Assembly: GCA_963713495.1 (NCBI GenBank)
Contig: CAVQLX010000006.1
Span: 59,747 to 123,746 of the forward strand
Origin: an uncultured delta proteobacterium
GTDB taxonomy: Bacteria > Desulfobacterota > Binatia > DP-6
Length of the DNA: 64,000 nucleotides
Direction: 5' to 3'
The stretch's first letter is position 1; each line of letters begins with the position of its first letter. Below the pieces are notes generated by a model, which was given only the letters and a program-made list of their open reading frames with translations, was not told the origin of the DNA and made no database searches. Shown one piece after another: positions 2,904-54,272 of the stretch. The position numbers and the translations under genes were made by a program.

Positions 2904-2959
2904 ATGCCCGCGCGCGAATCGTCGTGACGTAGCGCCCGAACCCGGGGCATCGAGGCAGC

Positions 2960-3427
2960 ATGCCGAAGATCGACGTGGCAGGGCTGCCCACGATGACGGG
3001 AACGACCTATCCGGCGCCGTTCGACGAGCCGTGCCGTGGACGCGAGTCCGTCCGGCTCGGGGTCGCTGCGGGTCTTACCCAGTTCGGCGTGAACCGGATC
3101 AAGCTACCGCCCGGCGTCTGGTCGAGTCAGCGCCATTGGCACGCGAAAGAGGACGAGTTCATCTACGTGATCGACGGCGAGGTGACGCTCATCGACGATG
3201 ACGGATCGGTCGTGCTGCGCCAGGGAGACGCGGCGGGCTTCCAGGCCGGCGTACAGGTCGGTCACCATCTCGTGAACCGGTCGGATCGCGACGCGGTGTT
3301 TCTCGTCGTCGGGAGCCGTGATGACGACGACTACGGCGAGTATTCGGACATCGACCTGCAGTTCGGTCCCGGCAGGTACTCCGGAAAGGGCAGCGGCTAC
3401 ACGCGGAAGGACGGCACCCCGTACTGA
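2960..3427 (+). CDS. Cupin-domain protein
   Basis: 155-aa ORF; the pattern WHAKEDEFIYVIDGEVTLIDDDGSVVLRQGDAAGFQAG is a typical cupin_2 beta-barrel signature. Confidence 0.6.
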   Translation: MPKIDVAGLPTMTGTTYPAPFDEPCRGRESVRLGVAAGLTQFGVNRIKLPPGVWSSQRHWHAKEDEFIYVIDGEVTLIDDDGSVVLRQGDAAGFQAGVQVGHHLVNRSDRDAVFLVVGSRDDDDYGEYSDIDLQFGPGRYSGKGSGYTRKDGTPY

Positions 3428-3465
3428 TCTTCTAGCGGCCGGCGCTCCTGTGCTAGACGGCCCGC

Positions 3466-5766: not shown

Positions 5767-5842
5767 GGGGCGGCGGTCGCGCTGTCGGGCTCTGTGTCGA
5801 TTTCCTCGACGCCGTGACCTGGTGAGGTATAGTCCGCCGCTG

Positions 5843-6800
5843 ATGCGCGCCACCTGGCTCGTTGCCTCGGGTGCCTTGCCCTCGCGACCTCTGCCGAGGC
5901 CAGGCGCCTCCACCTGCACAAGCCGCGGCACGGATTCCAGATGCGGATGACGTCGTTCGTCGTCCAGCCCGGCGCCGACCGCGAGGGCTGCGAGTACGCG
6001 GTCGCGCCGAACCGCCGGCCGATGGACGTCGCCGGCTTCGAGCTGAACGTCACGCCCGGGGCGCATCACTTCGTGCTGTGGGAGTACCTCGGCAAGGATC
6101 AGTCGAGCACCGACTTCTGGACCGGCATCCAGTATGCGCCGGGCTGCGTCGGCCTTGGCCCGCAGGACGCCTTCGTCAGCAACGCAAACCTGTTCGGCAT
6201 GGTGTCGTCGGCGACGAAGCGGATCCGTTTCCCGCCTGGCGTGGCGGTACGTCTCGAGCCTCACGCGATCGTCTACCCGAACCTCCATTTCACAACTACA
6301 CGACGGCTCCGATCGACCGCGCAGGCGGTGTTCAACCTCATTCCGGCGCGTCCGGGCAGCGTGAAGCACCACGCGCAGGCGTTCACCGTCGGCTCGTACA
6401 ACATCAACATCCCTGCGCAGGGCACCGCGTCGCTGACCGGCGAGTGGCGTGCCCCCGCCAACATGAACCTCGTGCAGATATCCACCCATCAGCACCATCG
6501 CGGGACGCGGATGACCGTCGACCAGATCGACGCCGCCGGCAACGACGTCGGAGAGCTGGTGACCTCGCCCGACTGGGAGCACCCGTCCGTGACCTGGTAC
6601 ACCACGGCGAAGCCGATCCGGCGCGGGCGAGGGCCTGCGCTTCACGTGCGAATGGAGCAATCCCGACGACCATCCGGTCCACTTCGGCGTGACGACCGAG
6701 GACGAGATGTGCTTCGTCGGCGGATACTTCTACCCGGATGACGATGGCGCCACGGTGTCGGGACCGGGCTGCGTGCCCCAGGGCTCTGGCCTGCGAGTGC
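5843..6800 (+). CDS. Copper type II ascorbate-dependent monooxygenase-like protein (PHM/DBH-like). Two or more frameshifts; the 3' end is uncertain.
   Basis: The main frame from 5941 carries GAHHFVLWEY ... LHFT ... STHQHHRG (CuH/CuM-like His clusters). After a frame change near 6630 it continues as GLRFTCEWSNPDDHPVHFGVTTEDEMCFVGGYFYPDD (TxDEMC Met-ligand motif). A signal-like N-terminus (MRA..LARCLGCLALATSAEA) is split between two frames at 5843-5900. Confidence 0.5.
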
Positions 6801-6890
6801 TTCGTCCCGAACGTCGCCACGACGCGCGCCGTAGCGCCGTTATCGACTCAATATCGCATCCGGCGGCGCCGTCTCCGGCGCTTCGGGCAA

Positions 6891-7739
6891 TCACTCCTTG
6901 TGCCCATTGTACGCGACGTCGCCGTGTGGACTGTAGGAGAGCGCCGGCGGCTGCTTCGTCAGCTCGAGATGGAACGAGGTGTCGTCACCGACGCTCTGGA
7001 TTCCTTCGCCGACCCGCGTCAGCTCGACCTCGACCGTGTCCAGTCGCTCGTAGTCGGAGGTGATGCGAACACGGCGCGGGCTCACCTTGACGACCGTGAC
7101 CGTCACGTCCGATCTGCTGCTGCCCTTGGCGTCGGACGTGACCTCGCCATGGTAGACGCCGCTCGCGAGATCGGCGAGATCGACATGGCCGGCGGCCGGG
7201 CCTGGTACCTGCGCCGGCCGTCGCAGGAACAACGCTGCGCCCAGCCCGAGCACGACCACCGCGAGGACGCCGCCGAGGAGGAGCCCGCGTCTCGACATCT
7301 GCCGCGGCGTCCGGGCCGTCGGCACCTGCCGTGACGAGGGCGCAGACGTCCGCCCGACTCGGTCGGCGATGCCCGCGCAGAGAGCCTGGAAGCCCTCGTG
7401 CGGCGTGTCGCCGGTCCAGTCGGCGAGGTCCACCGTCTGCTTGCGCCGGAACTCCAGCGGCAGCCTGACGCGGTCGATCGATGCGGGGACGAGGACGTCG
7501 CGCTCTGCCGCGGCCGCGGCTTCGTTCTTCACCCACTCCGACGTGACCGAGCTCCTGGACCAGAGCACGACGACGCTCCTGGCGGTCTCGAGCTCGCGCT
7601 CGATGGCCTCGTCGAACGCGTGGCCGGCGACGATCTTCCGATCCCACCACACCGACCAGCCGGCTGCCTCGAGCGACCGGGCAAGGGTGGCAGCTCGCTC
7701 GCGGTCCTCGTTCGCGTAGCTGAGAAAGACGTCCGTCAC
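6891..7739 (-). CDS. TIR-domain protein with one transmembrane helix and a ~110-aa extracytoplasmic C-terminal domain
   Basis: The N-terminus (M)TDVFLSYANEDRERAATLARSLEAAGWSVWWDRKIVAGHAFDEAIERELETARSVVVLWSRSSVTSEWVKNEAAAAAERDVLVP is a bacterial TIR (TIR_2) signature. The hydrophobic stretch RRGLLLGGVLAVVVLGLGAALFLRR follows, then a beta-rich tail. The start codon is GTG with no obvious Shine-Dalgarno. Confidence 0.7.
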   Translation of the reverse strand: MTDVFLSYANEDRERAATLARSLEAAGWSVWWDRKIVAGHAFDEAIERELETARSVVVLWSRSSVTSEWVKNEAAAAAERDVLVPASIDRVRLPLEFRRKQTVDLADWTGDTPHEGFQALCAGIADRVGRTSAPSSRQVPTARTPRQMSRRGLLLGGVLAVVVLGLGAALFLRRPAQVPGPAAGHVDLADLASGVYHGEVTSDAKGSSRSDVTVTVVKVSPRRVRITSDYERLDTVEVELTRVGEGIQSVGDDTSFHLELTKQPPALSYSPHGDVAYNGHKE

Positions 7740-7925: not shown

Positions 7926-9093
7926 TCAGTGCCGCCGCGTGGCGACGTCCGGGTTCTCCGCGGCCAGCCCCCGGGCGAGCCAGCAACGCGCGCTCCGGTC
8001 GCCGCCGAGAGAGGCGTCGAAGAACGCCGCCGCGACGATGCGTGTCAGCTCGTGCTGGCGCTCGAAGTCGAGCGTCGCCAGCGGCGGCGCCGCCTGGCAG
8101 GGCGGTGAGCACGCGTCGCTCGCGACCCCCGCAGCGCGTCCACCCGGGAGCGGCGGGAAGAACGGGCTGGATCCGATCGCCCCGAGCAACGAGGCGCACC
8201 CGAGACGATCGATGTCCGCGGGCGTGCCGAGTGCACTGGCGAATCCCGTGAAGCCGAGGTGCGAGCCGCCGTGCAGCTCGACGAGCGTGCGTGGACCGCG
8301 CGCACGCCGGACGACGCGGAGCCCGTTCTCCTCGATCGGCGCGAGACCGTCGGTATCGCCTTGCAGGACCAGCAAGGGCAGGCTGCATGCCCTTGTAGAA
8401 TGCCCGCGTGAACGCGCACGAGAACGCCGGCGCGATCGGCAGGACGGCGCGGATGCGGCGGTCGCGGAGTTCCCGATGGTAGGTGAGCAGCATGACGGTC
8501 GCCGCGCCGAGGGAGAGACCGCTCGCGATGACCAGCGCGACGTCGACCGCACCCGCCAAGCCACCATCTCCGGCGAGGAGATGCTCCAGAACCGCACGCA
8601 GATCACCAGGCTGGTTCGCGAGATCGTCGGGTGTCGCACCGCACGGCGCACCGAGCTTGCCGAGCGGGAAGTCGACCGCGGCCACGATGTAGCCGCGACT
8701 GGCGAGATGCTCCGCGAGGTACGCTTCGCCTGTGCGACTGTCCTGCAGCGCATGCCCGTAGAGGACGAGCGGGTAGGGTGCCCCGCTGGTGTCGAGTGGA
8801 GCGTCGCGCAGCGCCGTACCGGTCGGCGGCGCCGCAGCGGGGTACCACACCTCGGTGTCGAGCGGACGAAAGGGCGTCCCCGCGAAGGAGCCGTTGAGCG
8901 GCGTGGCGCACGTCTGATCGATGAACCGCAGTGTCCGGACACCCACCGACCATGGCCCGCGGCTGGCGAAATCTGCCGTCTGGCGCGCACGCACGCCGCG
9001 ACACCCCGAGCGGGCGCTCGCGATCGTGGGGAGCGCCGTCGCGATGGAAAGTGCGGCGGCGAGAACCCGGATCACCTTGCTTAGGTGCGCCAT
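7926..9093 (-). CDS. Secreted alpha/beta hydrolase (PAF-acetylhydrolase/dienelactone-hydrolase-like), with one frameshift near 8400
   Basis: Signal peptide MAHLSKVIRVLAAALSIATALPTIASA. The G-x-S-x-G block ASGLSLGAA sits in the 9093-8400 frame; the C-terminal LLVLQGDTDGLAPIE...HGGSHLGF sits in the 8990-7926 frame. Confidence 0.6.
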
Positions 9094-9217
9094 GAGCAGC
9101 GGCGGGGGGACATAGCACGCATCGGCTGGAACAAGCACATCCGCGGCAGGTTCCTGCGCCACACCAGCAACGAGGTGCGGACGTGGACACAACGCTTCGG
9201 CTGCGCGAGGATCACGT

Positions 9218-9590: not shown

Positions 9591-9707
9591 CAGCGGACCA
9601 GAAGAGCGAGGGGTGGCAGTCCGTCTTCCAGGCGCTCCGGGACGCCGAGGGGCGGGCGGTCTGCGCCGCGCTCGCTGACGGGAAGTATCGCTTGAGCGCG
9701 CCGCAGC

Positions 9708-11198
9708 TCAGCGGTCGGGCTTGTGCCGACCGGAGTGTAGGCCGGAGAGGTCGCGCGCGACCATCGTGTTGCGATCGGACACGCTGCTGCCGAGCGCGAA
9801 CTGCGGCCAGAGGCCGGCGATCTCCTGCCGGCTGCGTTCGCTCCACGCCCGGGCGAGTCGGCTGCGCGTCTTGTAGAAGTTCAACGCGAAGCCGCCGGTG
9901 TACAGCCGCAGGAGGGAGAAGCCGCCGGGATACTCCTTGCCCGCGGCGATCTCCTGCATCGTGACCCCGGGTGCGATCGGGCTGATCGTGCGCTTGTTGC
10001 GGTGCGTGTGGCCCGCGTGATGCAGGAACAGTCCGGGAGTCTGCGCGTAGTCGTCCAGGATCGTCGCCACCTGTCCGACCTCGAGCGCGTTGCTCGGCGT
10101 GATGGGGAACGGCGACTTCTCGACGATCAGGGGATGGTGGCCGAACACGATGGTCGGCTGGTCGCGCTCCTTGGCGAGCTCGGCGCGGAACCAGGCGAGC
10201 TGTTCGGTGGAGAGCGCGCCGGCATCGTTGCCCCGGCCGGGCTTGTCGTAGGTGTCGATCCCGATGACCCGGAGGCCCCGGAGCTCGCGGCTGAAGTAGG
10301 TCGGCTCGTCTCCGGGGAAGAAGTGATCGTGGAAGCAGTCGTTGCCCTGCCACTGGCCGATGCGACACGCGGCATACGCCTCACCGGTATGCGCGCGATC
10401 GTGATTGCCGCGCGTGACGAAGTAGTCGCGGCGATACTTGCCGAATCGTCTGAGCAGCTTCCCCGCCTTGCTGAGATCGACCGGCGCGGCCTCGGCGGTG
10501 ATGTCGCCGGCGGCCAGCAGGAACGACGCGCCGAGCGCGCTCGCGTCCTCGACGAGTGACTTGAGCATCACCTCCGGGTAGGGCGGCAGGCCGGGAGCCT
10601 GCTGGATCCCGGGGATGCTCGAGCCGCCGAGGAGCCCGGCCGTCGTCTCACCCATGTGCAGGTCGTTGCACAGCACGATGGAGAAGAGGAATCGCCCCGG
10701 CGGCGGCTCGGGAACGGTGAAGCTGTACGGACCGCCGGTGGTCAGGCCGAAGTCGGAGGTGCCGACCGCGTTGCCGCTGATGAGCGTGAACGGCGTCGGA
10801 GGGACCGGGATGTCGTTCGACCGGGCCTGGTAGTAGTACGTCTCTCCCGGCTCGAGCCCGTTGAGCTCGACGTAGTGATACGGCGTGTCGCGCGAGCGAT
10901 CACCGGCCACCCGGTTCAGCCGCTGCGGGTCGGTTCCCCAGTAGACGACGCCGTCGGCCGGAGCGGGCTCCATCCGACCGAGGCCGTCGTCGGTCCCCGT
11001 GTATCCCGTGTACCAGGTGATGATCGCCCGGTCTTCGGTGAGAGTCACCAGCTCGAGGTTCACCGGCGACACGGCGCCCTTGCGGCTGGCTGCGGCGGCG
11101 ACCCCGTTGTCGAACAGGCGGCGAGCGAAGAACGGTGAGGCCGCGGCTACGGCGGTCCACCGCAGAAAGTCCCGTCGGGTGAAGTCACAACCAGGCAC
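9708..11198 (-). CDS. Tat-secreted metallophosphoesterase (purple-acid-phosphatase-like, with an N-terminal FN3-like domain)
   Basis: Twin-arginine motif MPGCDFTRRDFLRWTAVAAASPFFA. Calcineurin-like motifs GDITAE, GNHD, GHHPL and GHTH are present. Confidence 0.8.
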   Translation of the reverse strand: MPGCDFTRRDFLRWTAVAAASPFFARRLFDNGVAAAASRKGAVSPVNLELVTLTEDRAIITWYTGYTGTDDGLGRMEPAPADGVVYWGTDPQRLNRVAGDRSRDTPYHYVELNGLEPGETYYYQARSNDIPVPPTPFTLISGNAVGTSDFGLTTGGPYSFTVPEPPPGRFLFSIVLCNDLHMGETTAGLLGGSSIPGIQQAPGLPPYPEVMLKSLVEDASALGASFLLAAGDITAEAAPVDLSKAGKLLRRFGKYRRDYFVTRGNHDRAHTGEAYAACRIGQWQGNDCFHDHFFPGDEPTYFSRELRGLRVIGIDTYDKPGRGNDAGALSTEQLAWFRAELAKERDQPTIVFGHHPLIVEKSPFPITPSNALEVGQVATILDDYAQTPGLFLHHAGHTHRNKRTISPIAPGVTMQEIAAGKEYPGGFSLLRLYTGGFALNFYKTRSRLARAWSERSRQEIAGLWPQFALGSSVSDRNTMVARDLSGLHSGRHKPDR

Positions 11199-11229
11199 GA
11201 TCCCAACCTACCGGTTCCGACGCAGAACG

Positions 11230-11943
11230 GCAGCTATGCCACGAAACGCAGGGGTCGTCTCCATCGTGACGCGTTGCGGAACCGCAAGCATGCTCCTCGT
11301 GAAACGCCAGAGCGAGTCTCTCGGGGTCAACCCGTCGCACTCCTTGCTCACGCCCGCTCCCACCCGAGGGCGTCACCGGCGTGCCTTCGCGGACGCCGCA
11401 CCGTTACGCTTGAGCTCCGCCCACAATGCCTGCGCGACCACGCCGTGCGCCCGGTCACGACGCCGCATCGCGAACAGCTCCATCACCTCGATCTCGAACT
11501 CCGGGACCTGAAGGCGCACCACGGTCCTTGACGCCAGCGCGTCGGCGACGACGTGCTCGTGGAGCCGCCCCAGGGCATCCCGGCCAGGATCACGTCCCGC
11601 TTCGCGGTCACGGCGGTCACGGTCCAGCGCAACGCCGCCCTCGAGCACGTTCAGCGACGGCGACGCTGGGTCGTGCGCGCTGTCGCGCAGGACGATCTGC
11701 GGGTGCGGGCGCAGCAGCGCCGGCGGGATGGCCGTGCCGCCGGTGTCGGCGGACGATCGGGCGCGCAAGGGCGGACGTGCACGCGCTGAGCGACAGTCTC
11801 GGCTTGCGCCGCGCCGAGCTGGTCGCGACACGGCATCCGCCCGCTCGTCGCGCAGCGCATCCACCGCGCCGGCCAGCCGCTCGGTCGAGAGCTCGATGCG
11901 GCACCGCGGGAAAGCGCTCCTGCACCACGCGCAGGATGGTCAT
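11230..11943 (-). pseudogene. LysR-family regulator remnant: substrate-binding domain only, no HTH, frame-disrupted
   Basis: Minus-strand pieces MTILRVVQERFP / RIELSTERLAGAVDALRDERADA / VRLQVPEFEIEVMELFAM resemble the LysR co-inducer-binding domain. No N-terminal wHTH is found upstream. Confidence 0.35.
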
Positions 11944-12000
11944 GATCGGACCGACGGGTGTGTGTCATCCGCACGCCGCTCGTCGGCGACGGCGCCGATG

Positions 12001-12138
12001 ACATGGCGGCGGTCCACCCGCTCGGACGCATCGGCGAGGTGGGAGAGACGTCCGACGCCGTGCTCTACCTTGCGCGCGCGGCGTTCGTCACCGGAACGAC
12101 GCTCGCCGTGGACGGAGGATATTCCCGTGGGCGCTGAG
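12001..12138 (+). pseudogene. Orphan C-terminal tail of a short-chain dehydrogenase
   Basis: MAAVHPLGRIGEVGETSDAVLYLARAAFVTGTTLAVDGGYSRGR* is the canonical SDR C-terminus. No upstream Rossmann portion is present. Confidence 0.4.
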
Positions 12139-12146
12139 GCGTCCGC

Positions 12147-13115
12147 TCACTCGAGGAGCCGCATGTGTCCCTCGTCGTTCAGCGTCTTCGCGAACGACGG
12201 CTCGTACGCGAGCTCCGGCGCCTGGCGGACCAACCGGTCGAGAGCCTGCGCATCCTGTCCGACCAGCACGCGCCAGGTGTCGGTGCGGACGCCCTCGAGG
12301 ATCGTCGACGCCGCCTGCGCCGCCGAGGTCGGTGCATGATCGCGAAAGGCGAGCGCCATCTGGTGCATCGCGGCGCGAAGCTGGTCGTCGGTCATGGCAT
12401 CCGCCGGGAGGCCGCGCCGGACCAGCATCGCACGGATCGTCGCGACGTCCTCGGCCGATGCGGACAGCGCATCGGCTTTGCCGAGCACCTTGGGCGAGTT
12501 GAGCAGGATCGACGTCCCGACGTGTCCGGGCATGACCAGCACGGCCTTCACGTGCGGGGCGTTCAGCCGCAGGTCGGTGATCAGGGCCTCGGTGAACCCC
12601 TTCACGGCGAACTTGGCGCTGCTGTACGCCGTGTGCGACACGCTCGGCCCGAGCGACGCCCAGAATCCGTTCACGCTGCTGGTGTTGATGATGCAGCCCT
12701 CGTCGCTGGCGACGAGCAAGGGCAAGAAGGCCCGCGCACAGTAGTACACGCCGGACCAGCAGACGTTGAACGTGCGCTCCCACTCGGCGCGGTCGCCGTT
12801 CACGAAGCTCCCGCCTCCGCCGATCCCGGCGTTGTTGAAGAGCAGGTTGATGTGCTTGGTCGCGTGCGCCGTCACGACCGCGTCGCGAAACGCCAGCACC
12901 TGGGCCTCGACGGACACGTCGCACGCGTGGGTCGTGACCCGTGCGCCGGCGCAGGCCACGCCTTCGGCCAGACGCTTCGTCTCGCTCATGTTCTCGGTCG
13001 AGACGTCGCAGATCGCCACGTGACAACCCTCGGCGGCGAGCTGCGTGGTGAGCTCGCGTCCCATTCCCGTGCCGCCGCCGGTGACGACGGCCAGTTTCCC
13101 GCGGAAGGTCTTCAT
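12147..13115 (-). CDS. Short-chain dehydrogenase/reductase (SDR) family oxidoreductase
   Basis: [21 protein letters not shown] (TGxxxGxG) ... NNAG ... S-Y-K triad region YSSAKFAV. Confidence 0.8.
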
Positions 13116-13170
13116 GCTTGCCGGCACATAGCGGGCCCTGCGCGTCGCTGTCCAGTCGCGCAGGTCGGTC

Positions 13171-14637
13171 CTAGGTGACACGTCCCGCAGCGCGATCCCC
13201 AGCGCATCGGCGACGCCTTCGCCGTAGGCGGGATCGGCCTGGGTGCAGTTGGCGATGTGACGCCGCTGGATCGCCTCCGGCGCACCGTTGATGGCCCGCG
13301 CGGTGTTCTCGAACAGGGCCTGCTGCTGTTCCGCGCGTCATCAGGCGGAACAGGTTGCCGGGCTGCGAATAGTAGTCGCGTCGTCCTCGCGGTAGTTGCA
13401 ACGATCGGCACCGCCCGCCACCGCCGAGCGCCGGCTCGCGGTAGGCGGGCTGCTCCTGCCACCCGCCGTAGCTGTTCGGCTCGTTGCCCAGCGTGCCGCC
13501 CTGGTTGCCGTCGACGCGCATCGCACCGTCGCGGTGGTAGCTGTTCACCGGGCACCGCGCGTGCGTTCACCGGGATCTGATGGTGGTTGACCCCGAGGCG
13601 GTACCGCTGCGCGTCGCCGTAGCGAGAACAGCCGACCCTGCAGCATCTTGTCGGGCGAGAAACCGATGCCCGGGCACGACGTTGGCCGGGTTGAAGGCGG
13701 CCTGCTCGACCTCGGCGAAGTAGTTGTCGGGATTGCGGTTGAGCTCCCACTCGCCGACCTCGATCAGCGGGTAGTCCTTCTGCGGCCACACCTTGGTGAG
13801 GTCGAACGGGTGGTACGGGACCTTCGCGGCCTCGGCCTCGGGCATGATCTGGACGTACAGCTTCCACTTCGGGAAGTCGCCGCGCTCGATGCTCTCGTAC
13901 AGATCGCGCTGGTGGCTCTCGCGGTCCTTGCCGATGAGCGCCTCGGCCTCGGCGTCGGTGAGGTTCTTGATGCCCTGCTGCGACGTGAAGTGGAACTTGA
14001 CCCAGAAGCGCTCGCCCTTCGCGTTGATGAAGCTGAAGGTGTGCGACGCCGAAGCCGTGCATGTGGCGGTACGAAGCCGGGAATGCCGCGGTCGGACATG
14101 ACGATCGTGACCTGGTGCAGCGACTCGGGCAGCTTGGTCCAGAAGTCCCAGTTGTTCTCGGCGCTGCGCAGGTTGGTGCGCGGGTCGCGCTTCACCGCGT
14201 GGTTGAGGTCGGGGAACTTCAGCGGGTCGCGGAAGAAGAAGACCGGGGTGTTGTTGCCGACGAGGTCCCAGTTGCCCTCCTCGGTGTAGAACTTCACCGC
14301 GAAGCCACGGATGTCCCGCTCGGCGTCGGCCGCACCGCGTTCGCCCGCGACGGTGGAGAAGCGAGCGAACATCTCCGTCTTCTTGCCGACCTGCGGAGAA
14401 GATGCTTCGCCCAGGTGTAGCGCGTGATGTCGTTGGTGACGGTGAAGGTCCCGTAGGCGCCGGAACCCTTGGCGTGCATCCGACGCTCCGGGATGACCTC
14501 GCGGTCGAAGTGCGCGAGCTTCTCCAGGAACCAGACGTCCTGCAGCAGCATCGGGCCCGGGGGCCGGCGGTGAGCACGTTCTGGTTGTCGACCACGGGGC
14601 AGCCGACGCTCGTGGTCAGCTTCTTCTTCTCGCCCAT
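13171..14637 (-). CDS. katA: Monofunctional haem catalase (clade 3, KatA-like), interrupted by four or more single-base frameshifts
   Basis: Consecutive catalase blocks lie in different frames: [29 protein letters not shown] / [39 protein letters not shown] / [43 protein letters not shown] / [19 protein letters not shown]...[18 protein letters not shown] / [14 protein letters not shown] / [17 protein letters not shown]. Each piece is near-consensus. Confidence 0.85.
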
Positions 14638-14679
14638 GTGACTCTCCTCTCGAGCGACGCGATTTCGGTCCTGCGCCGA

Positions 14680-15987
14680 TCAGCCTGGAAGCGGACCGGT
14701 GGCGCGACCGGCGCGCGTGTCCGCGGGGATGGCGGGAAGCTGCATCCTGCGCCGTCCGAGGATGAGCAGCCGCTCGAGCCACGTGAGATCGTTCGGCGGG
14801 ACCTTGGGAATGACGTGGTACCGGACGCGAACCTCCCCGTCGGCCTCGGTGAGCTCGAAGTAGTTGAGCTGGTATGACGGGACGTAGACACCGGGGAGGC
14901 GGCCGATCCGGACCGGCACGTAGTCGAGCCGTTTGAGCCAGGTCCCCGTGTTGATCACGTAGCGCCCGTCGACCTCGCGCAGGGACGGGATGTGCGTGTG
15001 CCCGTACACGAACAGGACCACCGACGGATCCGCGGCGAAGATCTCCCTGGCGGCCGCGATGTACTGGGCGTCCTTCTCGAGATGCAGATTCTCACCCCTG
15101 CTCACCCCGTAGCGGGCGATCGCCGCGCGCGTGTCCCGCAGCAGGAAGTACAGCGGCACGGACAGGAGCAGCAGGGTGGCGATGACTGTGCTGTTCACGA
15201 ACTGGACCAGGTCGATGAGGCGACCGGGGAAGCCCAGGATCGGCTGCAGGTCGATGTCGAAGACGGGTGTTTGCCGCCCGAGCAGGCGCTCGAGCGTCCG
15301 GATGCCGAAGACGACCGCGCTCGCGGAGAAGAGCAGGAGGAAGGGAAGCAGGCCCCAGCGGAGGACCGGCGCCATCTCCTTGTAGAAGTGGTTCGACAGC
15401 GCCCAGAACGGGATGTCCTCGTTCGGATACACCGACTCCACGTCGTCGAGCCATCGGGCCTTCGCGCGCTCGGCGCTCCGCCCGGCCGCGGCGACGACGC
15501 CGCTCGTGATGAAGTACCCGAGCGGGAGGCCGTAGCGGTTGCCGAAGTCGGGGAAGCGATTGAAGGCGTCGTACTGATTGCCGTGCTCGATCCAGACCGT
15601 GTGGCCCGCGATCGTCCGGGTGATGTGCACCACGGGCTCGAGGTGGATGTTGTATCGCGCGAGCTCGGTTCGGTACGCCGGCACGCAGGCCAGGTCGTAG
15701 TCGTGGTTTCCGGGCAGCAGCGTGATCGTCACGCGCTCGCCGGTCTCGCGAAACTGGCGGAACAGCGCGGGACACATGGCGGCGATTCGCTCCAGCTTGG
15801 ACGGACCCTCGCGATCGGTCAGCTCCCAGAATCCGAAGGCATCGCCCACGATGATGAGCTCGGCGGGCTGGGGCCCGACGGCGATCTCCGCGAGGAAGGC
15901 GACGAGCTCAGGCTCGAAGTCGCAGCGAGCGAGTCCCCCGTCGCCTCCGATGTGCAGGTCACTGATGAGGTAGTAGGTCGTCGCCAT
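14680..15987 (-). CDS. Membrane-associated metallophosphoesterase (calcineurin-like)
   Basis: Starts [18 protein letters not shown]; motifs GDAFGFWE and LPGNHD; central hydrophobic segments ([33 protein letters not shown]); C-terminal YGHTH. Confidence 0.75.
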
Positions 15988-16313
15988 CGACGCTGCGCTC
16001 AGGGTGAGGCGCGAGGCTATCCCAGAACGCGGGACGCTCAAAAGAGCGCGCGCGGACGGGACGACTCCCTCGCCGCGCCGAGCTGCGCTACTATTTCGGG
16101 TAGCGGCTGTTACCGGCTCGGGGCCCTCGGCGAGACGGCCACCTCGTCGGCTCGGGCCACGCGACAGCGTGACGCTCTGGATGGTGCCGGGGATGGCTGC
16201 GCGCCTCGCGCGGATCCAAAGGGGACGACGTCTCGCAACGATCCACCGGCCGGGCCTTGGCCCGGGGGAAATCCCATCGGACTCAATGAAAAAGGCTTGC
16301 AGTTCGCGCGTGA

Positions 16314-16329
16314 GGCATGGCATGCCCTT
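16314..16329 (+). promoter_or_regulatory. Candidate sigma-54 (-24/-12) promoter, TGGCAT-N5-TTGC, about 85 bp upstream of the acylase start
   Basis: The sequence tggcatgccctttgc matches TGGCAC-N5-TTGCW with the GG/GC spacing conserved. It lies in the 424-bp divergent intergenic region. Confidence 0.3.
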
Positions 16330-16410
16330 TGCCTCTTACCGGCCTCCACTCTCGCGCGCCGCAGCTTCGTCGGAATCGGTGCAGCTCGACTGATAGAAGG
16401 GAAGAACCTG

Positions 16411-18808
16411 GTGAAACGATCGCTCTGCTCAATCCTGGCGCTTGGTGTTCTCGCCGCGGTCCCCGCAATGGCTTCGGACCTTGCGCGGTACGTCCTGCCG
16501 CCCGGCAACTTCGGCGGCGTACCGTTCACCGTCAACTCCACGGACCAGCTTCCGCTCTACTCCGGTCTCAGCCCGCTGCGTGACAACATCACGGCGGCCG
16601 ATATCGACCACTTCTACCTTCCCGAGGACTTCACGCCGATCGAGCCGTCGCACGAGGAAGCGACCGGGCGGCCTGGACTTCGCCTCGTCTACGACGCGTA
16701 CGGCATCCCGCACGTCTATGGCCAGACCCGGGCGGACGTCGCGTTCGGGGCCGGATGGACCACGGCGCGCGACCGCGGGCTCCTGATCCAGATCGGCCGC
16801 GGCCCCGCGCGCGTCGCCGTCGCCGACGTGCCCAACATCGACGCCTTCTCGCTGGTGACCAGCCTCCAGACGTTCACGCCGAGCGCGGCGGCCGAGGCCC
16901 TGGTGACGCAGCAGGCGCAGCTCCTGGTCGACGTGTACGGCGCGAAGGGGCAGGAGATCCTGAGCGATGCCCAGGCCTACGCCGACGGCATCAACGCCTA
17001 CTGGGCGGCGAACAACATGAACCAGGCGCCCGCGACCGTCAACGACGTCATCGCGGTCACGGCATTCATCGGGTCGATCTTCGGCGCCGGTGGCGGCGGC
17101 GAGGCGGCGAACTCCAACCTGCTCGCCAAGCTCGATCAGTCCCTCGGCGCGGACAGGGGCCACCAGGCATGGGTCGACGTCATGCTGGCCGACGACCCCG
17201 AGGCCCCGACCACGACCAAGCGAAAGTTCAAGTACCCGGCTGTTGACCGGTGGCCCGGTGACGGGCTCGGTGGTTCTCGATCCCGACTCCATCCAGAGCA
17301 TCGACCCGCGCCAGCCGGCCGCGGCGGCCGCCGCGGCACCCGCTCGCCGGCGCGCGTCGAACTTCCTGGTCGCGGCGCCGTCACGCTCGGCGTCGCACAA
17401 CTCGCTCGCCGTGATGGGTCCGCAGCTCGGCTACTACTACCCGGAGATCGTGCAGCAGATCGATCTCCACGGCCCCGGCATCAACGCGCAGGGCGCCGCC
17501 GTGCCCGGCCTCGCCATGTACATCCTCATCGGTCGCACGCCGGACTACGCGTGGAGCCTCACCTCCGCGGGACACGACGTGCGCGACGTGTACGCCGAGG
17601 AGCTCTGCGAGCCCGATTCCTCGGCGCCGACGCGGGCGTCGACGCACTACCTCTACAACGGCGTGTGTCAGGCCTTCGACATCTTCAACGCCGGCACGCT
17701 CGGCACCACGCCGCTGATCTATCCGGTCTCGGCGCACGGCCCCGTGTTCGCCACCGCCACCGTCGGCGGAAAGCCGTACGCCCTCTCGCGCCGTCGCTCG
17801 ACGTTCGGCCGCGACGCCCTCAACCTCGGGGCGCTGAAGGACATGACCGAGGGCCAGGCGTCCAGTCCGTCGCGGTTCTGGCGCGCCGCGAACCAGTTCG
17901 GGTTCACCTTCAACTGGGCATACGTGTCACGCAAGAAGACGGCCTACTTCTCCTCCGGCTACCTTCCGAAGCGTCCGCGCGGGCTCGATCGGCGGCTGCC
18001 GACGCTCGGAACGGGTCAGTACGAGTGGCAGGGGTTCCTGAGCCAGAAGAAGCATCCGCACGACGTGAACGGTCCCGGGGGCCTGCTGCTCAACTGGAAC
18101 AACCGCTCGGCGCCCGGGTTCATGCACGGAGACGACGAGCCCTACGGGTCCGTGCAGCGGGTGGAGATGTTCAACAAGTGGCCGCCGAGCCCGCAGATCA
18201 CCGACAACGTCGGCATCATGAATCGCGCCGCCACGCAGGACGTGCGCTCGCCCGTGTGGCCCGTCGTGAGCCGGGCCCTCCACATGAGTGCGGCCCCGAG
18301 CCCCCGCGACCAGCAGGTGGTGGACATCCTCGACGACTGGGTGGTCAATCGCGACGCCCCCCGTCTCGATGCGGACAACGACGGGTTCTACGACGAGGCC
18401 GGTCCGGTGATCATGGACGCGCTCTGGCGCCCGATCGCGAATGCGGTCATGTCGCCGGTGTTCGGCTCGCTCATCGGCGACCTGGACAACGTTCGCGACC
18501 TCGACGGCCTGGAGGGCGAGTCCTACGTGGACAAGGACCTCCGCACACTGCTGGGCGAGCCGGTGATCGGGCCGTTCAATCTTTCGTACTGTGGCCTCGG
18601 ATCGCTCATGCCGTGCGTCGACTCCCTGTGGCAGGCGGTCCACGCGACTGCCGACGCGCTCACCGCGCAGCAGGGTCAGGTGGACCCGAGCCTGTGGCGG
18701 AAGCCGGCGGCCCTTTCGGGCTTCGTGCCGGGACTGCTGCCGAACAAGTTCACCTTCACCAACCGGCCGACGTTCCAGCAGGTGCTGGAGTTCGACCGGC
18801 AGGGATAG
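16411..18808 (+). CDS. Penicillin-amidase-family Ntn hydrolase (penicillin/AHL acylase-like), with a GTG start and one frameshift near 17235
   Basis: Signal peptide (V)KRSLCSILALGVLAAVPAMA. The alpha-subunit ...YDAYGIPHVYGQTRADVAFGAGW; after the frame change the beta-subunit begins SNFLVAAP...(Ser nucleophile) and continues to the conserved C-terminus. Confidence 0.8.
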
Positions 18809-18817
18809 CGAGACCGC

Positions 18818-20284
18818 CTAGACACGCACGAAGTCGATGAAGCCGCGCTCCGGGTTCGTGTGCACGAGCCGCACGCGGACGCGGTCGCCGACGTCGAGCC
18901 CCTCCTGACCACGCTCGACGCGGCCCTCCACCGGCGGGTCGAACACGCGGACCCACGTGCCCTTGGCCGACGCGCCGGTCACGACGCCGTCGAACTGCTG
19001 GCCGATGCGGCTCGTCAGGAGACACGCGGCCGCAGCCTTCCGCACCATCCGCTCGACCTTCTGCGCGCCGTCCTCCTTGAGCGTGCATTCCGCGGCGAGC
19101 GCACCGAGCTCGTCCTTGGCGTACGGAATCTGCTCGCTCGCGAGCGCCGCGCGGACGAGGCGCTGGGTGACGAGATCCGGATAGCGCCGGTTCGGGGCGG
19201 TCGAGTGCGTGTACTCGCTCACCGCGAGTCCGAAGTGGCCGACGACCGCCTGCCCGGGAAAGCTCGCCACGTACTCGCCGCGTCCGAGCAGCTTGATGAT
19301 CGTCAGCGAGAGATCGGGAAAGCGGAGTGGATCGGCCGCGCGCCGCTTCAGCAGGAAGGCGTTCAGGGCAGGGGCGTCGGGCTCGCCGGGTAGCTGGCTC
19401 GCCGAACTCGCCGGCGAGCGCGACGATCCGTTCCCAGCGCTGGGGCGAGCGCACCACGCGGCGCAAGACGGGGAATCCCTGTGCTTCGAGGAAGCGCGCG
19501 ACGATCCCGTTGGCCGCGATCATGAAGTCCTCGATCAGGTTCTTGGCGCGGTTCGGCTTCTCGTCCGCGAGACGGCTGACGGTGTCGCCCTCGAACTCCG
19601 CGCGCACCTCCATGGTCTCCAGCTCGAGGGCTCCGTGGTCGTGGCGGTGCGCCTTCAGCCGTTGCGCCACGCCGTCCTGGAGCTTCAGGTTCTCCGCCAG
19701 CCCGGGAACGGCCGCGAGCGCGGGAGGCGGTGGGCCGTCGCCCTGCAGCCACGAGCCGACCGCATGGTATGCGAGCTTCGCGTGGTTGTGCACGACGGCG
19801 CGGTAGACCTTCGACTCCTGGCACACGCCGTCGTCGCCGACCGCGATCTCCGCCACCACCGCGAGGCGATCCTCGCCGGAATTGAGCGACGTCAGGTCGG
19901 TGCTCAACCGGTCGGGCAGCATCGGGAAGTTCCGCGGCGGCGTGTACACCGACGTGGTGTTGGTGCGGGCGTGTCGGTCGAGCGCGGACCCGCGGGCCAC
20001 CGTCGCGCTCACGTCCGCGACGGCCACGCGGATCGTCGTGCATCTCTCCTGCCGGGGCGTCCGCCACCGTGAGCTGGTCCAGATCGCGCGAGTCGTCGTT
20101 GTCGATCGAGCACCAGGGCAGCGCGCGCAGGTCGCGCTCGGCGCCGTCGCGCGGGCGCTGCGCCGGACAGGGCCCCGGCCTCGGCCAGGGCCGCGGGGGG
20201 GAAGTCGGGCTCGAGCCCGTGCTCGACCATCGCCTGCCGCGCGACGCGCAGAAGCAACGCGCGCTCGGATTCCCGGGCCGCCAT
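18818..20284 (-). CDS. RNase II/R-family 3'-5' exoribonuclease (RNB catalytic domain plus C-terminal S1-like domain, no N-terminal cold-shock domains), with two or more frameshifts
   Basis: LPWCSIDNDDSRDLDQLTVA (RNB start), NFPMLPDRLSTDLTSLNSGEDRLAV, HFGLAVSEYTHSTAPNRRYPDLVTQRLVRA (RNB motif IV), and the tail GTWVRVFDPPVEGRVER..VRVRLVHTNPERGFIDFVRV. The ATG at 20282-20284 overlaps the TGA of the upstream LOG gene. Confidence 0.7.
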
Positions 20285-21073
20285 CAGCAGTCCTCGTCGG
20301 GGCTCTCGCAGGTCCGGGAGCGAGCGAACGACGGTGCGGTGGTCGCGCTCTCGCTCCCGAGGGCGGCACGGAGCCGCGCGAGCGCTTCGGCCGGCGTGTC
20401 GACGAAGTCGAGCAACCCGAGGTCCTCCGTCGGCGATCATTCCGTGGCGCACGAGCGCGGGGAAGTTCACGATCTCCTGCCAGTAGCTCGGCCCGTAGAG
20501 GAGCGTCACGATCGGCCGGGCGAGCTTGCGCGTCTGGCAGAGGGTCAGGATCTCGAACAGCTCGTCGAGCGTGCCGAAGCCACCGGGAAAGACGATGATG
20601 GCGCGCGCCAGGTGCGCGAACCAGAGCTTGCGCATGAAGAAGTAGTGGAACTCGAACCCGAGTCCCGGCGTGATGTAAGGGTTCGGCCGCTGCTCGTTGG
20701 GGAGGCCGATGTTGAGCCCGATCGTGCGGCCGCCCGCGTCGGCCGCGCCGCGGTTGGCGGCCTCCATGATGCCGCCTCCGCCCCCGCTGCAGACGAGAAA
20801 GCGGCGCGCCGGCGACGCGATTCCGAGCGACCATTCGGTCACCAGGCGCGCGACCTCGCGCGCCTCGGCGTAGTAGCGCCCGAGGGGCCCGTCGGCGCGC
20901 ATCCGGGCCGACCCGAAGAACACGATCGTGTCGTGGACGCGCTCCCGCTCGAACGCGTGCAGGGGCTGGAGATACTCGGCGAGGATGCGCAGCGGCCGCG
21001 CGGCGTCGCTGTCGAGGAATGCCTCGTCCCGGTAGGCGAGCAGCGGATCGGTGGGCGTCATGGCGCGGGGCAT
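20284..21073 (-). CDS. LOG-family protein (TIGR00730-type nucleotide 5'-monophosphate nucleosidase-like), with a frameshift near its 3' end
   Basis: VFFGSARM...GGGGGIMEAANRGA..GGRTIGLNIGLPNEQRPNPY...PGGFGTLDELFEILTLCQTRK. The C-terminus EDLGLLDFVDTPAEALARLRAAL is recovered in the +1 frame. Confidence 0.7.
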
Positions 21074-21136
21074 GGTGACAGAGGAGCGCGCATATCGCCA
21101 AATGGGCGATGGGGCTCGGCCGTCGGCCCTCGACAA

Positions 21137-21165
21137 TTGTACCCGGACGATATTGCGTCTATATT
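21137..21165 (+). promoter_or_regulatory. Sigma-70-like promoter (TTGTAC, 17-bp spacer, TATATT) in an AT-rich divergent intergenic region upstream of the DUF2239 gene
   Basis: ttgtac ccggacgatattgcgtc tatatt. The local AT-rich patch is unusual in a ~70% GC window. Confidence 0.3.
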
Positions 21166-21186
21166 TTGCCCGGGTATTATAAGGGC

Positions 21187-21738
21187 ATGGACCCGGACAA
21201 GACGTTCACCGCGTTCGCCTCCGACCGCATCGTCGCCGCCGGGGCGATGGCCGACATGCTGCGCGCCGTGAAGCGGCACCTCGACCGCCACCCCGATGCA
21301 GGCGTGCTGATCTTCGACGACCAGACCGGGCAGCAGGTCGATTTCGACCTCCGCGGCCGGCTCGACGACGTGCTGGCACGCGAGACACCACCGGCCCCGG
21401 GTCCCGGCCGCCCCAGGCTGGGCGTGGTCTCGCGCGAGGTCTCGCTCTTGCCGCGTCACTGGGAGTGGCTCGAGCAGCAGCCCAACGGGATCTCCGCGGC
21501 GCTGCGCCGGATCGTCGACGAGGCGAGCAAGCGCAATCCCGACGCGCAACGAGCGCGCCGCGCCCGCGACGCGGCGAGCCGCGTCATGACGGCGCTGGCC
21601 GGCGACCGCCCGGGTTTCGAGGAAGCCTCGCGCGCACTGTTCGCCGGCGATCACGCCCGGCTCCAGTCGCTCACCCGCCGCTGGCCGATCGATCTGCGCC
21701 GTCACCTGGCCCGACTCCTCGGCATGCCATCGCCGTGA
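21187..21738 (+). CDS. DUF2239-family protein
   Basis: MDPDKTFTAFASDRIVAAGAMADMLRAVKRHLDRHPDAGVLIFDDQTGQQVDFDLRG...GRPRLGVVSREVSLLPRHWEWL is characteristic of DUF2239. Confidence 0.6.
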   Translation: MDPDKTFTAFASDRIVAAGAMADMLRAVKRHLDRHPDAGVLIFDDQTGQQVDFDLRGRLDDVLARETPPAPGPGRPRLGVVSREVSLLPRHWEWLEQQPNGISAALRRIVDEASKRNPDAQRARRARDAASRVMTALAGDRPGFEEASRALFAGDHARLQSLTRRWPIDLRRHLARLLGMPSP

Positions 21739-21840
21739 CCAGGCCTCTGGTAGTCGCCGCGGCATGCGGTCCGTCTCACCCTTGGCGGCACGCGTGCGGC
21801 TGCCTATGCTGCGCGCGTGTTTCCCGGAGGCCTTCGCGCG

Positions 21841-23316
21841 ATGGCGTACTGCCGGCCGGACAGCGTGCGCCCGGGCGACGAGGTGGCGCTGCATCTGTCC
21901 GCCGCCACGCCGACTGTCTCGGTGGAAGTCGTGCGCGACGGCCTCGAGTCCGAGGTGGTGTGGCGGGGAGCTGGCGTCGCGGCACCGGCGTTGCCGATTC
22001 CGGACGACGCTCCCGAGGCGGGATGCGGATGGCCGGCGGCGATCACCATTCCCGTGGACGCATCCTGGCGCAGCGGTCTCTACCTCGTGCGCCTCGTGCC
22101 CGCTGACATGACCGAGGCCGAGTCCCCGACGGCCTTCTTCGTCGTGCGCGCCGTGACCCCGTCGGCCGACGCCATCGTCCTCGTCCTCGCGACGACGACG
22201 TGGAACGCCTACAACGACGTCGGTGGCCGCAATTTCTACACCGGCGCGGTCGAGCTCTCGTTCGAGCGTCCTCTCTCCGTCGGCATGCTGGCGAAGCCGG
22301 CGGGGAGCGGCGAACGCGTGGCCACCATCGACGCGGGGACCGGTGCCGCGGCGTTCATGGAGTACACCGCGCGTCACGGCCTCGCGATGTGGCACGGCAT
22401 GGCGGGCTGGGCGGCGTGGGAGCGACGCTTCCTCCGCTGGGCCGAGGCCGCCGGCTATCGCATCGACGTCGCCACCAGCCTCGATCTCGATCGCGATCCG
22501 GATCTGCTCGTGCCCTATCGACTGCACGTGAGTGTCGGCCACGACGAATACTGGAGTGCCGGCATGCGCGACGCCGTCGAGCGCTTCGTCGCGCGAGGCG
22601 GTCACGTCGTGTTCTTCTCGGGCAACACCTGCTACTGGCAGATCCGCCTCGAGGACACGCGCGAGACCTGCTTCAAGCATCGCTTCCGCGACGACCCCGT
22701 CCACGGCACCGACCGTCGCGCGTCGACCACGACCATCTGGTCGGATCCCCAATTGGCGCGGCCCGAGAACCAGCTCACCGGGGTGTCCTTCACACGTGGC
22801 GGATACGCGCGGACGGCGCGGAGCGTGCCGGCAGGAAGCGGCGGCTACGAGGTCCATCGACCGGATCACTGGGTGTTCGGCGGCACCGGGCTACGCCGGG
22901 GTGATCAGCTGGGCGCTGCGCCGGTCGTCGTCGGTTACGAATGTGACGGCTGCGAGCTCGCGCTCGTCGATGGGCTCCCCGTGGCGACCGGCACCGACGG
23001 GACACCGCGGACGTTCGAGATTCTCGCCACCGCGCCGGCCACGCCGTTCGACCGGCGCACGACCCCGCTGCCCCTCGCGCCGGGTGCGGAGTACGAGCTC
23101 GAGTTCCATGCCCGCACCCTCCTTGGCGACGACGGCCCCGCGAGCTGCGATCGCCTACGCCATGGACACGCCGTGCTCGGCACCTACGTGGGCGGCGGGA
23201 CGGTGGTGACGACGGGGTGCACCGACTGGGCGTACGGCCTCGACGATCCCGCCGTATCGCGCGTCACGCGCAACGTCCTCGATCGTCTCGGCCGCGGACG
23301 TGGCAATGCTGGATGA
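21841..23316 (+). CDS. N,N-dimethylformamidase beta-subunit-like family protein (large conserved hypothetical)
   Basis: GGAGG lies 9 nt upstream of the ATG at 21841. Motifs LVLATTTWNAYNDVGG and FFSGNTCYWQIR are typical of this family. Confidence 0.5.
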   Translation: MAYCRPDSVRPGDEVALHLSAATPTVSVEVVRDGLESEVVWRGAGVAAPALPIPDDAPEAGCGWPAAITIPVDASWRSGLYLVRLVPADMTEAESPTAFFVVRAVTPSADAIVLVLATTTWNAYNDVGGRNFYTGAVELSFERPLSVGMLAKPAGSGERVATIDAGTGAAAFMEYTARHGLAMWHGMAGWAAWERRFLRWAEAAGYRIDVATSLDLDRDPDLLVPYRLHVSVGHDEYWSAGMRDAVERFVARGGHVVFFSGNTCYWQIRLEDTRETCFKHRFRDDPVHGTDRRASTTTIWSDPQLARPENQLTGVSFTRGGYARTARSVPAGSGGYEVHRPDHWVFGGTGLRRGDQLGAAPVVVGYECDGCELALVDGLPVATGTDGTPRTFEILATAPATPFDRRTTPLPLAPGAEYELEFHARTLLGDDGPASCDRLRHGHAVLGTYVGGGTVVTTGCTDWAYGLDDPAVSRVTRNVLDRLGRGRGNAG

Positions 23317-23523
23317 AGGCGGGCCTCACGCCAGCGCGACGCCGCTGCGGGCGAGAGCCTGTGCCAACTGGGGCCCGGACGACAAGGCATCACCGCCGTC
23401 GACGGCGGCACGTACACGCTCGATGGCGTGTGGGATGCCAGCGAGGCCCAGCTCCCACGCACTTCCGGCACCGCCACCCGACCCGGGAGGTTGCGGCGCG
23501 AGCAACCTCCCGGGGGGCGACGG

Positions 23524-24907
23524 CTAGAGCTGCTTCCTGAGCGTCTTCAGGTCGTCGAGAATCGGCCCGGCGTCCGCCAGCAGCGCCGCGCGGGTGTCCG
23601 CGGGGATGTTCTTGCGCGAGCGCAGCGACCGCAGGCGATGATCGAAGTCGATCAGCTTGCGGGCCGCTTTCTTGAGGGCGTTGCTGGCGGGCTTCTTCCG
23701 GCCAGCCGTGACGGAGTCATCGGCCGCCTGTGTCTTCGACCGTGCGGCCGCCACGCCGTTGCGCAGCGCGGTCTTGGTGGTGCCCAGGTCCGACGCCGCG
23801 TCGACCGTCGCCAGCAGCGCTTCCAGCCGGCAGATGATCGACGCGAAGGTGGCCGCCCGGACGCCGCACCCCGATGCCAGCGTCGTGGTCGTCGTGGTGC
23901 TGGTCGGGTGTCGTCGTGGTGGTGATCGTGGTCGTCGTGCTCGCGGTCGTCGATGGAGGCGGGAAGCCCGCGCCGCCGATCTGGACGATCGAGTTTGCTG
24001 GATCGCCGCGGAAGGTGGCGACGAAGAAGTCGTTGGTCCTGGGATCGAACTCGAGTCCCCATGGTCCGACGCCGAGTCCCGAGGCGAAGCGGCTGTCGGT
24101 GGGATTGGCAGTGCCGAGCGTCGGCAGTCCACTCGTCTTGTCCACCGGCAGACCGGTGGCGGCGTCGATGGTGAGCAGACGCACCTCGCCGAAGTTGTAG
24201 TTGACGTACATCAGGTTGCCCGCGAGCGGACCGGACGGAACGTACTGGATGGCCCCGGTCCCCTGCTGCGGCAGGGTCACGAACAGGGTCACGGCGCCGG
24301 GGGTGAAGATGCCCGCACCGGCGGACGTGAGCGGCACCTCGTAGAGGTTCGCACCTTGCCACGAGCTGACCTGCATCATCCCGAAGCCGGTTCCGGGATC
24401 GGTGCGGTGCGGGGAGAAGGTCATGCCCGCGACCGACGACGGAACGCCGACGGTCCCCATGTTGAACTGCGTCTCTGCGCCCGTGACCCCGCCCGGTCGC
24501 TCGCCGAGGCGATTGGACGACCAGTACGTGTAGAAGAGCGTCCCGCCCGGGCCGATCTCGAACCCGGCATCGAGACCGGGCGTGGCGGCCGTTCCGTCGA
24601 AGACCTTGGTCACCGCGGCGGCGGGACCGAGGCCCGTCACGTCGCCGGTCAGCGGGTCGCGTGTCACCGGAACTCCGTAGAGCGCGCTCGTCGGCGTTTC
24701 CGACGCGCCGACCACGTAGAGCAGGTTGCCATCCGCCGAGAAGAGGAGGCCGGCGAGTGGCCCCGGGATCCCGAGCGACGTCGCGCTGAAGGTGTTCTTC
24801 ACCTGGAAGTTGCCGGGGTCGTCCAGGGTGACGACGGCGAGGGCGGGGGCTGCGGCGGCGCAAATGGCGAAGGACAGGACCGCGCGGAGGGGGTGTGCAA
24901 TCGACAT
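23524..24907 (-). CDS. Secreted beta-rich protein, Thr-rich linker, then the shared helical C-terminal module (one frameshift in the linker)
   Basis: Signal peptide MSIAHPLRAVLSFAICAAAAPALA. The linker PPPSTTASTTTTITTTTTP is followed, after a frame change, by TTTTTTLASGCGVRAATFASIICRLEALLATV...GRKKPASNALKKAARKLIDFDHRLRSL...LKTLRKQL*. Confidence 0.6.
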
Positions 24908-27136: not shown

Positions 27137-27182
27137 AAACTGTTTGCCTTGCACGGCCTGCGTCGGCTAGGTCGACGACGCG

Positions 27183-28202: not shown

Positions 28203-28220
28203 GGCCCGAGGAGGACGAAC

Positions 28221-34512: not shown

Positions 34513-34540
34513 CCACGCACGCGACGCACGTCGCGGCAGC

Positions 34541-54271: not shown

Positions 54272-54272
54272 C

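Follow-up and report, generated by a model that had tools for sequence, protein, structure and literature searches.

The DNA analyzed here raises the question why the gene for a conserved catalase can only be read by changing the reading frame again and again. The window, by which we mean the whole stretch of 64,000 nucleotides from contig CAVQLX010000006.1 of an uncultured delta proteobacterium (assembly GCA_963713495.1), carries this gene on its minus strand, and about 11 of its approximately 50 genes contain frameshifts. Such shifts may stem from decay of the genes in the organism or from errors of the assembly, and in the latter case the kind of error has to be asked for as well. It is very probable that the frameshifts arose as errors in the consensus of a long-read metagenome assembly and are neither mutations of the organism nor errors in homopolymer length. 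As judged from the comparison with related contigs, the errors were probably made where co-occurring strains differ.

Frameshifts in the catalase gene

In a three-frame translation of the minus strand (13100-14700), all three frames are used by one catalase, whose conserved blocks hop from frame to frame. The events were placed by a frameshift-aware dynamic programme against five homologous catalases and a second time by blastn against the intact, syntenic catalase of the related contig L070. Both methods agree on the following features:

13172-14637, minus strand: small-subunit monofunctional haem catalase, full length, 485-486 amino acids (aa) when de-shifted, with 13 one-base indels
13336 (C), 13378 (G), 13382 (C), 13421 (C), 13560 (C), 13624 (G): one-base insertions (+1) in the catalase, first set
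13669 (C), 14048 (G), 14077 (C), 14392 (T), 14408 (C): one-base insertions (+1) in the catalase, remaining set
14558: one-base deletion in a CC/GGGGG context, at a polymorphic site (T in L070, A in L071)
13175: one-base deletion relative to L070, directly 5' of the stop codon, which puts the TAG out of frame

In total, the gene contains 11 one-base insertions and two one-base deletions. The initial annotation had correctly described the catalase as readable only by frame switching, but its four to five switches were an under-count. With 13 shifts in 1.47 kb, compared to about 13 in about 54 kb of other coding DNA, the shift density is approximately 30 times higher in the catalase than elsewhere.

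The de-shifted product matches proteins containing PF00199 and PF06628 with 83-89% identity over 98-100% of its length. The protein itself is unremarkable, a monofunctional catalase of the clade-3 type. Aligned with 120 homologues, it shows no departure at 179 invariant columns and none at a further 103 columns with at least 95% conservation (282 columns in all), and it contains no in-frame stop. The claim that neither substitutions nor stops have accumulated therefore holds. In a leave-one-out control, the homologues themselves depart 0-3 times. Differences to the L070 gene are distributed over the codon positions 1/2/3 as 48/32/104, a skew which reads as selected divergence and not as noise.

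Related assemblies and strain alleles

For comparison with related assemblies, exact-product look-ups were performed. The short-chain dehydrogenase/reductase (SDR) gene next to the catalase returned two public contigs, L001 (ENA ERZ25039552 contig_49772, 196 kb) and L002 (a contig of the Joint Genome Institute (JGI), 5.4 kb), for which the identity to the window is 99.4-99.6% in one flank of the catalase and 98-99% in the other flank. No other contig was found with the broken catalase open reading frame (ORF) of 356 aa, and no match was obtained with the metallophosphoesterase (two candidate starts) or the ORFs 51829-52770, 27183-28202 and 61802-62845. L070 (ENA ERZ25039551 contig_35666) is about 95% identical to the window and thus more distant than L001 and L002. 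Another part of the same contig (112744-133679), here called L068, served as a further comparator, while no close comparator was obtained for positions 1-7400, 24600-37600 and 46200-64000.

The closest contigs are undamaged at the shift sites of the window. L001 calls a penicillin amidase of 742 aa, an RNB protein of 487 aa and a LOG protein of 262 aa, all without the insertions of the window, and the insertions at 17240, 19396, 20042 and 20431 are missing from L001 as well as from L070. None of the 11 catalase insertions is present in L070, nor is the insertion at 8380. Compared to L001 (98-99.6% identical) and L070, the indels are private to the assembly of the window.

The related contigs have shifts of their own in the same genes. 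A three-way MAFFT alignment of the window, L001 and L070 over 14660-23322 (about 8.6 kb), in which the events at 16681 and 17240 were polarised by translation, revealed 5-6 one-base insertions and no deletion private to the window, and 15 one-base insertions and no one-base deletion private to L070. The latter break the same acylase, RNB and LOG genes, the acylase with 10 or more events. A private insertion of L001 at 16682 removes the true N-terminus of the acylase and is concealed within the ORF call of 742 aa. After this finding ORF length was dropped as proof of intactness, which was judged by Pfam coverage instead. In L068, a DEAD-box helicase is split by 13 indels, whereas the copy in the window stays in a single frame and spans both Pfam domains completely. 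Because three assemblies break the same genes at different sites, the damage appears to be noise and not inheritance.

L068, which is affected above all at 12200-17500, also contains a split histidine kinase and a spurious gene call on the opposite strand. For this lineage, ORFs on public contigs from long-read metagenomes can in general not be relied on. Frame changes on the same strand, counted per kb of coding DNA, amount to 0.61 in the window, 0.70 in L001, 0.85 in L070 and 2.26 in L068, compared to 0-0.21 in short-read-style contigs of related organisms; this is a crude contrast, as the baseline includes legitimate gene junctions. Considering all events, about 22 insertions stand against three deletions. 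The comparison thus strongly supports assembly errors instead of pseudogenisation, as had been proposed initially: near-identical contigs are undamaged at the shift sites, they carry private insertions elsewhere, and the events are biased towards insertion.

The inserted bases follow a pattern. At 20431 the window reads CCGTCGG, which becomes the L001 allele CCGTGG if the C is dropped and the L070 allele CCTCGG if the G is dropped. The insertion of L001 itself at 16682 has the same form, in which CTTCAGCCTC combines CTTCGCCTC and CTTCAGCTC. The insertions carry two strain alleles in tandem at polymorphic sites, for which we use the term "+1 allele superstrings". For a systematic test, each base within ±6 nt of an insertion was dropped and it was recorded whether two comparators prefer different drops; L070 and L071 were used for the catalase, L001 and L070 elsewhere. 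Six of the eight testable insertions in the catalase are superstrings compared to 18.8% in the null (P = 9e-4), which was obtained by exhaustively simulating random insertions in the catalase gene. Outside the catalase the fraction is 3 of 4 (null 3.6%, P = 1.8e-4), and overall it is 9 of the 12 testable insertions of the window. In addition, the indel hot zones, namely the catalase and the L068 helicase, coincide with a locally high density of mismatches between strains.

The most economical explanation of this form would be a mixture of strains. Reads of two co-occurring strains would be piled on one draft, and where the strains differ at adjacent bases the aligner or polisher would write the other allele in the form of one insertion and one deletion, of which presumably only the insertion is accepted. 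The consensus would thus keep a base from both alleles (e.g., GT and TC become GTC), whereby one base is added and the frame is shifted. The catalase is worst affected because it is an accessory, strain-variable segment with the highest divergence in its neighbourhood. It is present in some strains only, which would probably result in lower or mixed read support, and as the most diverged stretch nearby (about 10% compared to L070) it offers many more sites with adjacent differences.

Sequencing platform, polisher and local coverage are what we infer here. Close relatives in public data carry Flye-style "contig_N" names. The metagenome-assembled genomes (MAGs) of Microflora Danica (MFD) were obtained from Nanopore reads by Flye --meta --nano-hq and one Medaka round, and their authors report Nanopore-associated errors in MAGs of low coverage (PMC12313526). 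Nanopore consensus frameshifts are well documented below ~40x coverage, classically in homopolymers (PMC9262707). An origin of the window from data of the Nanopore/Flye type is plausible. Strains of the L001 and L070 type originate from ENA analyses with adjacent numbers (ERZ25039552 and ERZ25039551), which is at most a hint at two haplotypes in one sample.

Several points weigh against the favored explanation. The superstring signature is missing in 3 of the 12 tested insertions, and these 12 are all insertions of the window. L070 and L071 are only proxies for the alleles in the actual sample, for which the coverage and a mixture of haplotypes are assumed. The excess of insertions is unlike the usual Nanopore profile, in which homopolymer deletions are dominant. 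Finally, the catalase lacks a near-identical intact reference, since its best matches reach 89% at the amino acid and 90% at the nucleotide level.

Among the alternatives, generic noise of unpolished raw reads at low coverage survives best. Here no strain mixture is needed, and the hot zones would be stretches covered by one or two reads. We regard this as possible but rather unlikely. Damage is patchy in all three long-read-style assemblies, the indel densities of 0.7-1.8% in the hot zones are of the magnitude of raw reads, and the strain-specific catalase segment is plausibly thinly covered. However, no substitution error is found at the 282 conserved catalase columns; the insertion excess is strong; and the insertions are located significantly at polymorphic sites, where the inserted base is the alternative allele. 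Plain low coverage is a partial alternative that ranks behind a mixture of strains, given that substitution errors are absent and that the superstrings are significantly enriched.

Homopolymer-length errors of the platform (454, Ion Torrent or older Nanopore), which the initial annotation had favored, are very unlikely. Homopolymer indels are the classic Nanopore consensus error, and two to three deletions in C/G runs would fit: the one at 14558 and another near 60755, where a run of five C is sensible as six. These rare deletions are the only events that fit the homopolymer model. For 20 insertions the position was fixed by a comparator or by homologues. Fifteen of them are singleton bases, three create runs of two and two create runs of three, but none creates a run of four or more. 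The window contains 79 runs of at least five bases, nearly all in undisturbed reading frames and at most two to three coinciding with an event, and its 17 runs of at least six bases are essentially unaffected. The shift of the hydrolase-cyclase gene, which had been assigned to a GGGGGG run near 54715, does not lie in this run either: the upstream frame reads on through the run at 54697-54702 (...SSEGGPLA), and by comparison with three homologues the extra base is at about 54712 (GCA[C]GTC), 10 nt past the run. Homopolymer-length errors are thus not supported for the insertions, which are found at strain-polymorphic sites instead.

The catalase locus and other affected genes

Recent pseudogenisation would imply that the catalase is decaying towards the deletion seen in related strains, and that the shifts in the other genes are real. 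Its assessment requires a closer look at the locus, which is organized as follows:

12147-13115, minus strand: SDR gene flanking the catalase, intact; protein 100% identical in L001 and L002
13173-14659: catalase segment including ribosome binding site and leader, 1487 bp; missing from L001 and L002, present at the same locus in L070
14680-15987, minus strand: metallophosphoesterase gene flanking the catalase, intact; 99.3% amino acid identity to L001

In L001 and L002 the catalase segment is missing as a whole, and 80 bp separate the metallophosphoesterase gene from the SDR gene. L070 contains an intact catalase of 485 aa at the same locus and in the same orientation, next to an extra FAD monooxygenase gene. 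Therefore, a chimeric or foreign insertion of the catalase is ruled out, and by synteny the gene is best seen as a native but variable part of the locus. Compared to L070, the DNA identity of the window is about 90% in the catalase and 94-95% in the flanks. At the protein level the identity to the L070 catalase (10001-11458) is only 85%, and actinobacterial or Nitrospira catalases are equally close with 85-89%. This pattern suggests a replacement of the allele at a fixed locus via recombination or horizontal gene transfer. The nearest genomes in the species collection are MAGs of MFD designated "uncultured delta proteobacterium" or Myxococcaceae, with at most 85% amino acid identity; when their contigs were scanned with the metallophosphoesterase, neither synteny at the locus nor a catalase was found.

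Gene content varies further around the catalase. The order in L070 is metallophosphoesterase, FAD monooxygenase, catalase, SDR, a second SDR (SDR2) and purple-acid-phosphatase-like genes. In the corresponding region of the window (9700-16000) the FAD gene is missing. L002 lacks the catalase and contains SDR2 and a LysR regulator, and L001 lacks all three. In place of the catalase, L001 and L002 contain 7 bp flanked by a short direct repeat, TCGGTCCTG. At 11300-12147, the window contains a truncated remnant of the LysR regulator and the second SDR. It lacks 966 bp relative to L002, covering the 5' ends of both genes, and a cluster of small events at 11749-11830 consists of 13 deletions and two insertions, the reverse of the bias at the other sites. 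Being deletion-biased, this remnant could be a genuine decaying one.

Both the variable gene content (FAD monooxygenase and catalase in L070, catalase in the window, neither in L001 and L002) and the truncated LysR remnant at a distance of 1.2 kb are in favor of pseudogenisation. Nevertheless, we consider it highly improbable for the catalase and the other shifted genes. Neutral decay long enough for 13 indels should leave dozens of substitutions, but there is none at the conserved sites and no stop, and the lesions are private to the window. Mira, Ochman and Moran reportedly described in 2001 a deletional bias of bacterial pseudogenes, to which the insertion bias found here is opposite. Moreover, about 11 of about 50 genes would be affected in a free-living lineage with large genomes, relatives carry equally many private shifts in the same genes, and the superstring signature has no mutational rationale.

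A related possibility is that the extra bases are truly present in the DNA and that a natural process acting on diverged alleles writes both in tandem, which would result in a burst of +1 frameshifts in an accessory catalase and in scattered genes; candidates would be error-prone repair of heteroduplexes or repair by template switching while co-occurring strains recombine. This is extremely improbable. It is likelier that the superstrings are made in the assembly, where they may form a distinct error class of long-read metagenome polishing.

Programmed recoding by ribosomal frameshifting, transcriptional slippage or RNA editing, for which the perfect conservation of the proteins on either side of each shift is the sole argument, is practically negligible, since a single gene would have to be recoded 13 times, at sites which are neither conserved nor slippery and which are shared neither by the L070 orthologue nor by any of the 120 homologues, all of them single ORFs, and since one-base events of the same kind occur in intergenic DNA at 16083 and 16093. 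Deliberately planted or simulated indels are a formal possibility, but errors of the same class occur in L068, L070 and L001, which are public contigs.

Consensus errors thus remain the favored explanation for the other genes, too. Shifts throughout the window were identified by a codon-usage hidden Markov model (HMM), which replaced a too coarse HMM based only on the G+C content at third codon positions (GC3), followed by reading of the ORF fragments. The codon-usage HMM over-calls, as adjacent genes in different frames resemble shifts; by reading of the fragments, its calls at 2875, 37545/37621, 44693, 55955 and 61021 are not true shifts. Besides the catalase, ten genes contain 1-3 shifts each:

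5893-6760, plus strand: PHM-like oxidase; one +1 shift near 6619
7938-9120, minus strand: alpha/beta hydrolase (PETase/PAF-AH-like); A inserted at 8380, a single gene of 395 aa in L070
16450-18796, plus strand: penicillin acylase; C inserted at 17240
18821-20166, minus strand: RNase II (RNB); G inserted at 19396 and A at 20042
20359-21079, minus strand: LOG (lysine-decarboxylase-like); C inserted at 20431
23527-24913, minus strand: secreted-protein gene; one 20-bp tandem-repeat unit fewer than L001, at 23907, frame shifted
28866-30294, plus strand: esterase; one +1 shift near 30114 (GAC[A]CCG)
30363-32907, minus strand: GH31 glycosidase; one +1 shift near 32740
54364-55650, plus strand: alpha/beta-hydrolase-adenylate/guanylate cyclase fusion; three +1 insertions at 54712, ~54803 and 55296
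60414-61021, plus strand: XRE-cupin regulator; one -1 shift near 60755, where a C6 run was plausibly shortened to C5

Shifts were confirmed in all named genes other than the catalase by the HMM, the reading of fragments and the alignments. For the hydrolase-cyclase, three or more shifts had been expected and three were found. Its 80 homologues are continuous in a single frame. The homologues obtained by scanning metagenome contigs with the de-shifted cyclase are at most 63% identical; they served to place the three shifts and not for allele tests. In the secreted protein, which is beta-propeller-like, the missing 20-bp unit GTGTCGTCGTGCTGCTGGTC (window 23900-23960) belongs to a Thr/Ser-rich linker, and its loss could be a real variation in repeat number or a collapse in the assembly.

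Some further observations concern other parts of the window. Inside a DMFA2_C-like gene (22056-22750), L001 shows a dense patch of indels and mismatches to both the window and L070. The latter two agree with each other and the protein of the window covers the Pfam model, so that L001 seems to be mis-assembled or recombinant here. A DUF305 ORF (42946-43299) and a YNCE-like beta-propeller ORF (41453-43282) overlap in different frames, and the equivalent region of L068 is called as one DUF305 protein of 743 aa. The boundary called by the HMM at 42948 may thus be either a further frameshift or the junction of two genes. Between two genes of the minus strand, two poly-C tracts with lengths of 12 and 11 bases and a spacing of 8 nt are located at 46069-46100. 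This region does not align with L068, and the tracts could be of the contingency type or a sequencing artefact. The G+C content of the window is about 69-70% throughout, and its source was taken to be a Myxococcota-like soil bacterium. At positions 1-2340 it is lower (0.63) and the codon model finds almost no coding DNA; a Cys-rich ORF (1698-2900) starts there. Rfam and tRNA scans of the window gave no match.

Consequences and comparison with known systems

The organism almost certainly has intact genes for catalase, penicillin acylase, RNase II, LOG and the other affected proteins. Annotation would turn about one in five genes of the window into pseudogenes or split ORFs, and statements on completeness, coding density or "gene loss" deduced from such contigs would be wrong. 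The worst-affected segments, accessory and diverged, are those regions which are mined for strain-specific functions. Since the insertions are not in homopolymers and are tied to strain polymorphism, homopolymer-aware corrections would not repair the window. Repair needs strain-aware polishing or frameshift-aware protein alignment. If the superstring class is real, reads would be needed neither for its detection nor for its repair. What can be used from this analysis is a lesson in quality control together with a specific, checkable error signature.

Compared to clade-3 small-subunit monofunctional haem catalases (KatA-type), the product of the window is alike in length, in identity (83-89% to hundreds of them) and in every invariant column, and no difference was found at the protein level.

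Bacterial pseudogenes of reductive evolution are known from Mycobacterium leprae and Rickettsia. As in these, there are multiple frameshifts per gene and a locus which is losing genes in sister strains. In contrast to these, the de-shifted catalase of the window is free of substitutions at conserved sites and of stops, the events are biased towards insertion and unshared, and relatives are equally damaged at other sites.

Consensus errors from collapsed strains are a known problem in metagenome assemblies, and Strainberry is said to be a strain-separation tool for them. The events in the window are likewise located at sites which differ between strains and are densest in the most diverged segment. 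No description of the "+1 allele superstring" outcome was found, and it is not known to be documented for Medaka or Flye.

The feature as a whole is the familiar frameshift artefact of long-read assemblies and nothing biological. Indel and frameshift artefacts of such assemblies were reportedly described by Watson and Warr in 2019. IDEEL serves to measure the problem, against which proovframe, Homopolish and polishing with short reads are used. As in artefacts of Nanopore or PacBio continuous long reads (CLR), conserved genes of the window are split into adjacent ORFs, indels greatly outnumber substitutions, and the errors are private to one assembly and unevenly spread; low coverage, which goes along with them there, would have to be assumed here. 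In contrast to the textbook case, the errors of the window are non-homopolymeric, biased towards insertion and mostly consist of two strain alleles in tandem, which points to a consensus of mixed strains and not to a signal error of pore or polymerase.

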